The notes under the pieces: generated by a model | Databases searched by the model: none | What the model saw: the letters and a program-made list of their open reading frames with translations, nothing else | Told to the model about the DNA's origin: nothing | Position numbers and translations under genes: made by a program | From: a virus | Taxonomy: Duplodnaviria > Heunggongvirae > Uroviricota > Caudoviricetes | DNA length: 42,684 bases | Virus record (IMG/VR): IMGVR_UViG_2529292907_000016 | Strand: one strand, 5' to 3' | In this document: piece after piece, positions 8,953 to 12,315 of the stretch | Layout: every line of letters starts with the position of its first letter | How positions within the stretch are numbered: the stretch's first letter is position 1

Positions 8953-8960
8953 TACTGCCT
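8953..8960. repeat. 8-bp target site duplication TACTGCCT (IS66 element, lower side)
   Basis: Identical 8-mer directly flanks both ends of the element. Confidence 0.65.
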
Positions 8961-9322
8961 GTAAGCTTCCGGGGAACTCATATTGACGCGTTTTTCAGGC
9001 GCGCGTCATCGGCGGCGCATACGAACGATCGTGGTTTGATAACGGTTGATTTATTTTGTTGCACAGAGGCGATCGCCAGGCAGGTACCGGAGGCGGGCTC
9101 TGAAGTACTGAGTAGGGTGATCGCGTCAGGCCGCGAAGTACTGACTCGGGGATTAATTGCAGGTGATGATGTATTGACCCGGGAATGACTCCGGGCTGAT
9201 TCAGGTTCTTATTCGCTGTCAGCCCGCGTGGTTGCTGGTCTGGCTCATTTCCTGCCGTCAGGAGTTCAACTCCCGACTGCAGGTTATGGCCCGGTGCACG
9301 AACACCTGACGGCAGGTATCAC

Positions 9323-10924
9323 TCACCCGGAGAAGGTAAATCCCTCAAGAGGCAGCAACTCTGCCAGTCGCTCCTCCAGCCACTCCGGCAGACGCATCAG
9401 GACGTCTGTCAACCAGGCATGCGGCTCCAGACCGTTGCGTTTCGCGGTTTCCAGCAAGCTCATTATTTGCGCGGCGCGTTCTCCCGCCATCTGCGAACCG
9501 GCGAACAGCCACGATTTTCTGCCCAGAACCACGTTTTTGATGGCCCGTTCACACACATTATTATCCAGCGGCACCGCACCATCTTCCAGGAAGCGGCTCA
9601 GTTCCACGCGATGAGACAGCGCATAGGCAATGGCTTTGTGTAATGCCCTTCCCGGAGAACATTGCGGTTCCTGCTCTTCAAGCCATGACCACAGTTCTTC
9701 CAGTATCGGACGGGCATAACGCTGTCGCCACTGGCGGATTTTTTCCACGGGGCGGCTACTGATCTTCTTCTCAAGACGGTACAACCCCGCGATTTTCTTC
9801 ACGGCTATGGCAGCCCGTGGATCTTTACTGATTTTATACAGGTCGGCGAAGCCCCTGCGGGCATGGGCCCAGCATCCGGCCAGCGTGATCTCCGGCACTT
9901 TGTTTGCCAGAGTCCGGTAAGCTTTATGTCCGTCGACAACCAGCGTCCCGCCCCAGCCCTGAAGCCAGTTTTCAGGATACTCATGGCTACGTCCGGTCCG
10001 GCAGTCGAAGCACACAACTGACGGTCCCGTCCTTTCTCCACTGACGTATGCCCACAGATAACCGGAGCAGGATTTACCGCCTTTCTTCGTGTTCAGGATC
10101 TTCAGGGTAGTCTCATCTGCATGCACCACCGGACGGTTTATCAACTCGCGATGGAGTAACGCCGCCAGGGGAGATAATGCGGCACCCGCCGCGCCAACCA
10201 TGTCAGCCATCGAACTGACGGGCAGCCCGACATCTGAACGGGCAAAGACCTGTTGCTGGCGATACAGAGGCAGGTGGTCACCGTATTTATTGATGATCAC
10301 CTGTGCGATGACTGATGGCTCAACGGCACTTTTCGGGAGGATATGTGCCGGCATTTCACCGCTGAACACCTTCTGGCAACAGGGACAACTGTATTGCGGA
10401 CGGACATAACGGTTCACCACAAAGTGAGCGGGAATATACTCCAGCTTTTCACTCACCGCATCGCGGATATAGTGCAGCGGCTCGTCACATTCAGGGCAAT
10501 GGTCAGTGTCCGGCTGGATAATTTTTTCCACCCGTGGAAGATGAACCGGTAAGGGTTTGCGTATCGGGCGTGAACGGGACGCTTTTTCATCTTCTTCAGG
10601 GGATTGCGGGAGCAGTTTATCCAGATGTGCGGTAAGCGCGGCGATATCGGCATCAACATCCTCTTCGAACAGGGAGCGTTGCATACCAGCCAGCGTTTCA
10701 CATTTTTTTCCGAAGCGCTGTTGACGAACCAGTTTCAGCATTTCTTCCAGAAGCTGGATGCGCCGGCTTTTCTCCAGTAATTCCCGCTCTTTTTCGGCAT
10801 TCTCCGACATGACTTCTTGTACCATGGCAAGTGCCATAGCACGCAGTTTTTCGATGTCATTCGTGGTGTTGAGAGCGGAGATATCCATACAGGGGAGTAT
10901 ACCACTCCAGATACGGATATTCAT
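9323..10924 (-). CDS. tnpC: IS66-family transposase TnpC (likely start at internal MDISALN...)
   Basis: Leucine-zipper-like N-terminus, CPECDEPL...CPCC zinc-finger and DDE-type core typical of IS66 TnpC. Confidence 0.8.
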   Translation of the reverse strand: MNIRIWSGILPCMDISALNTTNDIEKLRAMALAMVQEVMSENAEKERELLEKSRRIQLLEEMLKLVRQQRFGKKCETLAGMQRSLFEEDVDADIAALTAHLDKLLPQSPEEDEKASRSRPIRKPLPVHLPRVEKIIQPDTDHCPECDEPLHYIRDAVSEKLEYIPAHFVVNRYVRPQYSCPCCQKVFSGEMPAHILPKSAVEPSVIAQVIINKYGDHLPLYRQQQVFARSDVGLPVSSMADMVGAAGAALSPLAALLHRELINRPVVHADETTLKILNTKKGGKSCSGYLWAYVSGERTGPSVVCFDCRTGRSHEYPENWLQGWGGTLVVDGHKAYRTLANKVPEITLAGCWAHARRGFADLYKISKDPRAAIAVKKIAGLYRLEKKISSRPVEKIRQWRQRYARPILEELWSWLEEQEPQCSPGRALHKAIAYALSHRVELSRFLEDGAVPLDNNVCERAIKNVVLGRKSWLFAGSQMAGERAAQIMSLLETAKRNGLEPHAWLTDVLMRLPEWLEERLAELLPLEGFTFSG

Positions 10925-10930
10925 TATTTT

Positions 10931-11323
10931 TCACTGAGTTAGCAGTGTATTTTGCGTGTTTTCAGGGCGCAGTTCAGGTTCATTCTGCCAGACCCATTTC
11001 GTCAGGTCATGTCCCTTAACCTGCTGCCAGTCAACACCGGCAATCAGCCAGTTAAACTCGTCGGGAGTGAGGTGCCAGGCAGCGTCATTTGCACGTGGCC
11101 AGCGGAAGCTGCCTTTGTGCAGACGGCGGGTACACAACCACACCCCGTGTTTATCCCACCGGAGAACTTTGATACGCGAACGGGCTTTGTTAACAAAGAC
11201 GAAGGCGGCTCCCTCATGCCATGTCGACCGGAGTTCATCCTGTATATACTGCGTCAGTGAGTCGATGCCCCGGCGCATGTCAACAGGTTTAATTGCGATG
11301 AAGACATTATCAGGACTGAGCAT
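10931..11323 (-). CDS. tnpB: IS66-family TnpB (Orf2); start set at internal Met of ORF 10931..11617
   Basis: C-terminal ~115 aa of the ORF resemble IS66 Orf2; overlaps tnpA end. Confidence 0.65.
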   Translation of the reverse strand: MLSPDNVFIAIKPVDMRRGIDSLTQYIQDELRSTWHEGAAFVFVNKARSRIKVLRWDKHGVWLCTRRLHKGSFRWPRANDAAWHLTPDEFNWLIAGVDWQQVKGHDLTKWVWQNEPELRPENTQNTLLTQ

Positions 11324-11639
11324 ATTTGAGTGCCCTGAAGACATCGGTAAGTTGTGACGGCTGACAGCACATCCGTACTCCGCCGGGAAGGAAGAGCGTG
11401 ACTGGCTCATTCGTGACGGGCTGTGGTACATCAGCATGCAGTGGTGGCGCAATATGAACGGGAAGAACGGTCGGTTCATTTGCCCGGCGTTCAGCTTTTG
11501 CGACATCCTGCGGCCATTCGCGAAGTGATGTGAAGGGAATATCGTTGAGTTCACAGTATTGCTGACGTGTAAGACCACTGGCGCGCCAGGCAGCAACGTG
11601 CTGCCTTTTCTGTTCAATGGTCCATCGGGGTTTTGACAT
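11310..11639 (-). CDS. tnpA: IS66-family TnpA (Orf1, HTH protein)
   Basis: 109-aa ORF MSKPRWTIEQKRQHVAAWRASGLTRQQYCE... first gene of the IS66 trio. Confidence 0.7.
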   Translation of the reverse strand: MSKPRWTIEQKRQHVAAWRASGLTRQQYCELNDIPFTSLREWPQDVAKAERRANEPTVLPVHIAPPLHADVPQPVTNEPVTLFLPGGVRMCCQPSQLTDVFRALKYAQS

Positions 11640-11679
11640 CGATTATCTCCGGTAAGTTGGTGAATGGATGTCGGTAATA

Positions 11680-12315
11680 CTAACTGACCGAAGATCCCTG
11701 TGAAGATGACTTCCCCGTAACGACACTACTGCCTTCGCCGTTATCATGATGCACATGGCCGGAATACCGTATCCCTGCAATAACGGCATCCGACATTGTG
11801 AACAGTCCCTGAGATTTCCCCGTACCCTCAAGCGCGAAATTACCCTTAACATGCAGGTTCTTATCCACCGTCACATTGCCCGTAAAGGTGGCTTCCGGCG
11901 TATCCACCCGCATCCCCTCGTCGGCGTAAATCTCCAGCATTTTGCATGTCACAATAATGCGGCCATCCTTTGTTAACCGTATCCGGTGCCCCTCATGGTG
12001 ATACACCCCCGTATCTCCGGCTGTGAGTCCGGTCGGGCGGCTGCGCCGGTCTTCCACCACAAGCACCACAGTCTGATCCCGCTGTCCGCCCAGACAGGCA
12101 AAAAAGGTTTCCGCACCCGGCAGGGGAACGCTGATCTGCCCGTACTGCTGGGGACGCTCCACATCATCAAAGGTTTCGCCGTCCATGCCGGTGAGCTGCA
12201 CATTCTGCATTTTCAGTTCGTCATGTGTGCCGGTCAGAACGCCCCGGCCAAACAACAGGCGAATACCGCGCGTTACCGGGGCAATCAGGCGGCTGAACAC
12301 TTCATCATTCATCAA
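11680..12315 (-). CDS. Baseplate spike/assembly protein V-like (Mu gp45-like); last 14 codons are IS-derived
   Basis: OB-fold plus Gly/Ser/His-rich C-terminus typical of gpV spikes; reading frame runs into the IS terminus. Confidence 0.7.
   Translation of the reverse strand: MMNDEVFSRLIAPVTRGIRLLFGRGVLTGTHDELKMQNVQLTGMDGETFDDVERPQQYGQISVPLPGAETFFACLGGQRDQTVVLVVEDRRSRPTGLTAGDTGVYHHEGHRIRLTKDGRIIVTCKMLEIYADEGMRVDTPEATFTGNVTVDKNLHVKGNFALEGTGKSQGLFTMSDAVIAGIRYSGHVHHDNGEGSSVVTGKSSSQGSSVS
11727..11734. repeat. 8-bp target site duplication TACTGCCT (IS66 element, upper side)
   Basis: Matches 8953..8960. Confidence 0.65.

Follow-up and report, generated by a model that had tools for sequence, protein, structure and literature searches.

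An ISEc49 insertion sequence of the IS66 family in the gp45-type spike gene of a Mu-like prophage

Canonical insertion sequences of the IS66/IS679 type reportedly consist of three consecutive genes, including one for a DDE TnpC, and their imperfect inverted repeats are said to be ~20-30 bp long with GTAA at one end. The imperfect terminal inverted repeats of the IS66 family are usually cited as starting with GTAA, and the length of IS66 is ~2.5 kb. Mu-type phages have genomes of ~39 kb and use headful packaging. An 8-bp target duplication is a reported signature of IS66 (PMC6778807, citing Machida 1984), and another member of the family has 8-bp repeats and GTGA/GTAA ends (PMC12898284). For phage Mu, the spike protein gp45 has a C-terminal apex domain with bound Fe and Ca, for which a role in penetrating the membrane is proposed (PMC11915804). 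At the locus described here, an IS66-family element lies within a gp45-type spike gene; the window is the whole stretch of DNA that was analysed, 42,684 nt in length, and the features under study are collected in Table 1.

Table 1. Features of the interrupted spike locus (positions in the window).
Feature	Position	Strand	Remarks
gp46-family baseplate wedge gene, intact	8497..8934	-	Pfam GP46 1.1e-37; 100% protein identity to HH35
Detached spike 3' end, including gp46 ribosome-binding site	8935..8952	-	read from sequence
Target-site duplication copy 1, TACTGCCT	8953..8960		exact 8-mer abutting IS end
ISEc49 (IS66 family) insertion sequence	8961..11726	-	2766 bp; 99.7% full-length identity to E. 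coli copies
Terminal inverted repeat IRR, tnpC-distal end	8961..8987		begins GTAAGC; 19/27 matches with reverse complement of 11700-11726
tnpC, DDE transposase	9323..10888	-	521 aa from PGAP-style start; Pfam and NCBIfam matches; ORF open to 10924
tnpB, IS66 accessory protein	10931..11323	-	130 aa; Pfam TnpB_IS66 PF05717 3.4e-35, 120 bits; NF033819, 115 bits
tnpA, IS66 accessory protein	11310..11639	-	109 aa; NCBIfam NF047593, 1.8e-13, 50.8 bits (cut-off 28)
Candidate tnpA promoter, sigma-70-like TTCACA-16-TAGTAT	11677..11704	-	consensus scan only, 9/12 positions; not functional evidence
Interrupted spike gene (Mu gp45 homologue)	11680..12315	-	196 native and 15 IS-encoded residues (SVVTGKSSSQGSSVS)
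Terminal inverted repeat IRL, tnpA-proximal end	11700..11726		outer end GTGTCG; pairs with 8961..8987
Target-site duplication copy 2, TACTGCCT	11727..11734		exact 8-mer

The segment between the two exact copies of TACTGCCT had been predicted to be a 2766-bp IS66-family element with a tnpA-tnpB-tnpC trio, and both its near-identical copies in E. coli and the IS66 family models bear this out. The name ISEc49 is taken from the PGAP label 'IS66-like element ISEc49 family' on the 99.7%-identical copies, not from a direct ISfinder comparison. Three minus-strand ORFs match the IS66 TnpA, TnpB and TnpC families. For TnpC, the Pfam matches are DDE_Tnp_IS66 (2.7e-90, 303 bits, cut-off 23), zf-IS66, LZ_Tnp_IS66 and DDE_Tnp_IS66_C, and the NCBIfam match is the equivalog NF033517 (442 bits, cut-off 180). 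As expected for the IS66 family, tnpA and tnpB, which overlap by 14 nt, precede tnpC and share its strand. All three ORFs are intact. The TnpA and TnpB proteins are identical to those of the other ISEc49 copies compared, while TnpC, without internal stops, has two amino acid changes relative to the SCU-101 copy (E64 and L504 in the window, G64 and P504 in SCU-101), of which L504 is also unlike the plasmid copy compared.

The 27-bp terminal inverted repeats are imperfect, as the original prediction had it. The number of matching positions corresponds to a binomial P of ~9e-7 for fixed positions, the 21-nt core is 81% complementary, and the first 20 nt of IRR and the last 20 nt of IRL were identical across 8/8 aligned copies. 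The inverted repeats thus agree with membership of the IS66 family, though a GTAA start is present at one end only; the outer GTGT of the other end departs from the GTAA usually given for IS66.

In 229 E. coli records, on chromosomes and plasmids and with differing flanking genes, the element is present over 80% or more of its length, and full-length matches (1-2766) reach 99.7% identity. The element occurs at up to 12 places per genome, being multi-copy in some genomes, and at 99-100% identity in plasmids and unrelated chromosomal islands. Its presence at unrelated sites indicates the mobility expected of an IS66-family member. In four other contexts, similarity stops at the same two end bases, and the boundaries are thus set independently of TACTGCCT. 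All five contexts have identical termini and distinct, perfect 8-bp duplications (TACTGCCT, GTTAATGC, GAATGAAG, CTTCATAC and CTTTCTCT). No consensus is shared among these five duplications, and there is therefore no evidence for specific targeting of the 3' end of the spike gene. Identity as a phage module was considered for ISEc49 and rejected, since no match was found among 50,697 phage records.

The site without the element could be reconstructed exactly. In a blastn comparison with the locus of the uninterrupted prophage of E. coli HH35, the left block ends at 12223 and the alignment resumes at 12216, an exact 8-bp overlap, and TACTGCCT is present only once in that prophage (20753-20760 in the coordinates of a separate extract). 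With the IS ends fixed, the probability of such an 8-bp flank match by chance is 1.5e-5. When the element and one repeat copy were taken out, the 1526-bp sequence so obtained was 100.0% identical, in one piece, to uninterrupted Mu-like prophages of five complete E. coli genomes. The empty site is also present at lower identity in ~220 more genomes, and it is uninterrupted in 227/227 matching genomes. No related prophage has the three genes at this site, and the ends of the element are those of a multi-copy IS. The junction between IS and spike gene was absent from complete E. coli genomes (no place covered both halves), and it gave 0 matches in species-representative genomes and 0 in metagenome contigs. 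Absence from all three collections suggests that the event is strain-specific, and the three intact ORFs, together with TnpA and TnpB proteins identical to those of other copies, fit a recent event. From these comparisons, we infer that the ISEc49 insertion is both recent and strain-specific.

The interrupted gene matches Phage_Mu_Gp45 (PF06890, 6e-25, 87 bits), and residues 2-199 of its product align with phage Mu gp45 (PDB 9ki1_V, 'baseplate puncturing device gp45', E 4.4e-61). Neighbouring genes match the Gp44-like/GpP, GP46, Baseplate_J and Gp48 families, and the interrupted gene agrees with a gp45-type central spike both in its domains, a Gp45 N-terminal domain and then a beta-helix and apex domain, and in its position between gp44 and gp46. 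The tail-sheath gene of the same prophage may also carry a frameshift, with an A5 versus A6 difference at ~18895; a possible homopolymer error in this gene hints at imperfect sequence quality.

As predicted, the element lies in the last codons of the spike gene. It sits 8 codons before the stop and is oriented like the late genes of the phage. Removal of the IS and one repeat restores a spike C-terminus ending in HVHHDNGEGSKTGVPENG ahead of the stop codon, and the intact form in HH35 has 204 aa. In the window, the native tail KTGVPENG is replaced by 15 IS-encoded residues, a change read directly from the sequence, and the stop codon lies inside the IS (11680-11682). The loss is limited to the last 8 of 204 residues. 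An HVHH motif just before the insertion point, which aligns with HIH at the equivalent position of Mu gp45, is kept. The last eight native codons and the stop are now at 8954-8928, starting within the duplicated 8-mer and extending 7 nt into gp46. The original prediction also held that the restored spike stop overlaps the gp46 start; an overlap does exist in uninterrupted prophages, but it is one of 8 nt (ATGGCTGA) rather than of the ATGA-type 4 nt. This overlap is gone in the window, where 2.77 kb now separates gp46 from the spike coding sequence upstream of it, and it is a reasonable inference that translational coupling between spike and gp46 is broken. The gp46 Shine-Dalgarno sequence AGGAG (8948-8944), which precedes the ATG (8934) by 9 nt, is outside the IS and intact, and gp46 could therefore be initiated independently if transcription reads through.

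No outward-facing promoter was found by the promoter scan at the IS end adjoining gp46, and the IS yielded no convincing intrinsic terminator on the minus strand. A strong hairpin (9251-9316) is present in the 362-nt untranslated stretch after tnpC. It is without a U-tract and its fold z-score is only -1.9; a terminator and a functional RNA are therefore both unsupported, and both readings of this stretch were rejected. Rfam and tRNA scans of the whole window found nothing. Because the IS genes are co-directional with the late operon and no terminator is convincing, the downstream genes may still be expressed.

Overall, these observations are explained with high confidence by transposition of ISEc49 into a Mu-like prophage spike gene, with its functional effects predicted from the sequence. 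A copy of the element would have entered the resident prophage, duplicating the 8-bp target, and would have landed near the end of the gp45-type gene in the orientation of the late genes. That the three genes could instead be cargo native to the phage (a moron), or ancestral genes since lost from relatives, has only their co-orientation with the late genes in its favour and is effectively refuted: the site is uninterrupted in every matching E. coli genome, the element is present almost unchanged in plasmids and unrelated islands yet absent from phage records, and a precise loss leaving one repeat copy in each relative is implausible. Mis-joining of contigs at repeats might also have placed a multi-copy IS into the prophage, and both the number of ISEc49 places in some genomes and the possible sheath-gene error are compatible with such an artefact. 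However, a mis-join would not yield a perfect 8-bp duplication beside exact IS termini, and the two flanks rejoin into known intact sequence at 100% identity, making this explanation extremely improbable.

Under the transposition of ISEc49, the insertion probably impairs or abolishes virion production, as judged from the sequence. The added 2.77 kb is likely over headful capacity and may take the Mu-type genome beyond what the capsid can hold. Expression of gp46, gp47, gp48 and the tail-fibre genes may be lowered or unbalanced, since it would depend on 2.77 kb of read-through and on independent initiation at gp46. Additionally, the spike may be altered in its apex (tip) domain. The insertion could also be real and near-neutral, with late read-through, separate gp46 initiation, a spike that tolerates the 15-residue tail and a prophage that is not disabled. 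The retained AGGAG, the lack of a canonical minus-strand terminator (the post-tnpC hairpin being without a U-tract) and the retention of 196/204 spike residues, with the His-rich HVHH motif among them, speak for this outcome. Nevertheless, it is considered unlikely: besides the likely excess over headful capacity, a 2.77-kb break in a tightly overlapping late operon commonly gives polarity, ISEc49 is in none of the deposited phage genomes searched, and the altered residues fall in the spike-tip apex domain (PMC11915804). It is very unlikely that the prophage with its IS can still be induced and packaged, serving as a Mu-like vehicle that spreads an IS66-family element, with the tip extension altering penetration. 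If this were so, a transposable Mu-like phage would move the element between hosts, and the IS-encoded 15-residue tip would change the penetration properties of the spike.

The insertion accounts for the odd spike C-terminus and for three transposase-type genes within a baseplate operon. It marks out a probably defective prophage, a useful pointer for calls of prophage viability, and provides a clean worked case in which the target duplication of ISEc49 can be set against a verified empty site. Its relevance outside annotation is small, and it raises no new biological question; the element is an already catalogued E. coli insertion sequence acting as expected, and the event is real but ordinary.

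In comparison to canonical IS66/IS679, the element in the window is alike in its three genes with a DDE TnpC, imperfect repeats, one GTAA end and 8-bp duplication, and differs in having GTGT instead of GTAA at the tnpA-proximal end; the untranslated stretch after tnpC makes it longer than IS66. ISEc49 copies of E. coli RefSeq genomes (for instance, NZ_CP048920.1 892548-895313) share its length, termini, tnpA-tnpB-tnpC layout, TnpA and TnpB proteins and 8-bp duplication at 99.7% nucleotide identity, from which it differs by 8 nucleotides and two TnpC substitutions. The gene order gp43-gp44-gp45-gp46-gp47-gp48 is shared with phage Mu and with the HH35 prophage (NZ_CP136993.2), which is 99.99% identical to the window over 1-8960 and 95-98% identical over the remainder. 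Unlike the window, the HH35 prophage has no IS and retains a 204-aa spike overlapping gp46, and it is integrated in a diguanylate cyclase gene, whereas the window prophage is in ycgV.

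The original prediction described an IS66-family element with a tnpA-tnpB-tnpC trio in the spike gene (a homologue of Mu gp45), and the element is a member of this family on every feature testable. The three minus-strand ORFs are each named by IS66 NCBIfam equivalog models (TnpA, TnpB, and IS66 transposase, respectively). Additionally, TnpB matches TnpB_IS66, and the 521-aa protein matches DDE_Tnp_IS66 (2.7e-90), zf-IS66, LZ_Tnp_IS66, and the IS66 C-terminal element. The full 2766 bp aligns end to end with E. coli records at up to 99.7% DNA identity, and ISEc49 copies covering at least 80% of it occur in 229 records (205 genomes), on both chromosomes and plasmids. 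The name ISEc49 is taken from the PGAP annotation of near-identical copies, labelled 'IS66-like element ISEc49 family transposase' together with tnpB and tnpA. None of the window IS genes has internal stops; TnpA and TnpB are identical to those of other copies, and TnpC differs at two residues from that of the E. coli SCU-101 copy. The untranslated stretch 3' of tnpC is unusually long and contains a hairpin and two GAAGTACTGA motifs; it has no Rfam match, and its fold z-score is only -1.9.

Coordinates of the insertion and of other prophage features in the window
Feature	Position	Strand	Details
DUF6645 gene	2230-4281	minus	684 aa
Invertible region	4370-6352		Mu G-segment-like
Gin-type recombinase gene	4370-4939	minus	adjoins inverted-repeat region
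Inverted repeats of invertible region	5001-5143 and 6209-6352		~143 bp, ~87% identical
Tail-fibre assembly gene	5430-5948	+	between the inverted repeats
gp46 Shine-Dalgarno	8948-8944		AGGAG, 9 nt from ATG at 8934
Target-site duplication copy 1	8953-8960		TACTGCCT
Element	8961-11726		2766 bp
Untranslated stretch	8961-9322		362 nt
GAAGTACTGA motifs	~9103 and ~9137
Hairpin arms	9251-9267 / 9300-9316		17 bp, 94% complementary
tnpC	9323-10888	minus	521 aa, PGAP-style start; ORF open to 10924
tnpB	10931-11323	minus	130 aa
tnpA	11310-11639	minus	109 aa
Stop of altered spike gene	11680-11682
Target-site duplication copy 2	11727-11734		TACTGCCT
Tail sheath gene	17811-19312	minus	split around 18895 (195 aa + 356 aa)
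Early regulators	40533-41513		Ner-like, 81 aa; repressor-like, 172 aa
Prophage end	~41816-41818

The termini, GTAAGCTTCCGGGGAACTCATATTGAC and the reverse complement GTGTCGTTACGGGGAAGTCATCTTCAC, match at 19 of 27 positions (P ~9e-7 for fixed termini), and a repeat finder independently picked up their 21-nt core. Seven other ISEc49 copies were fetched, representing four further insertion contexts (an Ag43 island, the F-type tra regions of two plasmids, and an ISNCY/rpnC site). In all seven, similarity starts and stops at the exact bases proposed for the window element, and thus its boundaries are fixed independently of the repeat. In the four contexts the element is flanked by perfect 8-bp duplications that differ from site to site (GTTAATGC, GAATGAAG, CTTCATAC, and CTTTCTCT), and 8 bp is the duplication reported as the IS66 signature (PMC6778807). 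With the ends fixed, the chance of a flanking 8-bp match is 1.5e-5. The 27-bp imperfect inverted repeats and the exact 8-bp direct repeat around the element are as first described.

The predicted empty site was likewise found intact. The 1526-bp sequence made by joining 8201-8960 to 11735-12500 occurs in one piece, without interruption, in 227 E. coli genomes; five complete genomes carry it at 100.0% identity and the others at lower identity. In the related prophage of E. coli HH35 (NZ_CP136993.2), the gene order is gp44-like baseplate assembly protein, baseplate assembly protein V (204 aa), GP46, baseplate J/gp47, and YmfQ/gp48, with an 8-nt overlap between the protein V and GP46 genes. When the whole window was compared with this prophage by blastn, 1-8960 aligned at 99.99% identity to positions 3264-12223 of the fetched HH35 sequence (L003), and alignment restarted at window 11727 (L003 12216), such that the 8-bp duplication is precisely what the two blocks share. 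No large insertion other than the IS is present. The comparison is direct evidence of simple transposition into a pre-existing prophage. Mis-assembly cannot account for a perfect target duplication with flanks that rejoin into known sequence. The 227 genomes with an uninterrupted site, and the occurrence of the element in unrelated plasmids and islands, contradict the idea that it is native cargo or was ancestrally present. Searches of complete E. coli genomes, species-representative genomes, and metagenome contigs found no copy of the junction between IS and prophage, and none of 50,697 phage records contains ISEc49. Taken with flanks that are 100% identical and IS genes that are intact, these results suggest that the event is recent and strain-specific.

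The interrupted gene carries the Mu Gp45 N-terminal domain, and its residues 2-199 align with the Mu gp45 'baseplate puncturing device' (PDB 9ki1_V, E 4.4e-61). Mu gp45 forms a trimer built from an OB-fold, a beta-helix, and an apex domain that holds Fe and Ca ions; the proposed role of the apex is to stabilise the tip as the envelope is penetrated (PMC11915804). Insertion occurred after residue 196, directly past the HVHH motif, and the predicted loss of the native C-terminus is borne out: KTGVPENG is exchanged for SVVTGKSSSQGSSVS, encoded by the IS end. The native ATGGCTGA spike/gp46 overlap is also destroyed, and polarity and decoupling effects are plausible. The gp46 Shine-Dalgarno is not within the IS and survives intact. 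The IS genes are co-oriented with the late operon, a consensus scan found no convincing minus-strand terminator within the IS, and the strong hairpin right after tnpC (9251-9316) lacks a U-tract, which would make read-through expression of gp46-gp48 possible. The only live alternative concerns function, namely that the insertion is tolerated, and we consider this unlikely. Mu uses headful packaging, and the extra 2.77 kb on a ~39-kb genome may also block distal-end packaging.

The window is a nearly complete Mu-like prophage, with counterparts of all 55 HH35 prophage proteins tested, most of them full-length and 90-100% identical. A few others (the protease and DUF2635) are 75-79% identical; in addition, the spike gene is interrupted and the sheath gene split. 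The main exceptions are the Ner-like and repressor proteins (partial matches, ~37% identity). Given the near identity of the late genes, the two prophages appear to share a structural backbone but to differ in immunity type. The sheath gene is split because, compared with its 500-aa HH35 counterpart, an A6 run is one A short; this is either a sequencing error in a homopolymer or a second lesion that inactivates the prophage. A Mu G-segment-like invertible region is present, and between its invertase and the com/mom-like prophage end is the DUF6645 gene, which matches the HH35 copy at 100% identity and resembles accessory cargo. The final 866 bp (within window 41816-42684) match the E. coli autotransporter gene ycgV at 100% identity; the prophage thus interrupts ycgV, and the host is E. 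coli. The HH35 prophage lies in a diguanylate cyclase gene, and the different sites fit random Mu-type transposition. At the other end of the prophage, ~125 bp are missing (1-60 versus L003 3141-3263): the window begins precisely at the stop codon of a 245-aa gene adjoining com, and therefore does not include the true right end or the target duplication there.

Overall, the insertion is real, was correctly interpreted by the original prediction, and is ordinary, as IS insertions in prophage structural genes are commonplace. Judged from its sequence, the element is essentially identical to the already catalogued ISEc49. In contrast to textbook IS66, the tnpA-proximal terminus begins GTGT rather than GTAA in all ISEc49 copies examined.
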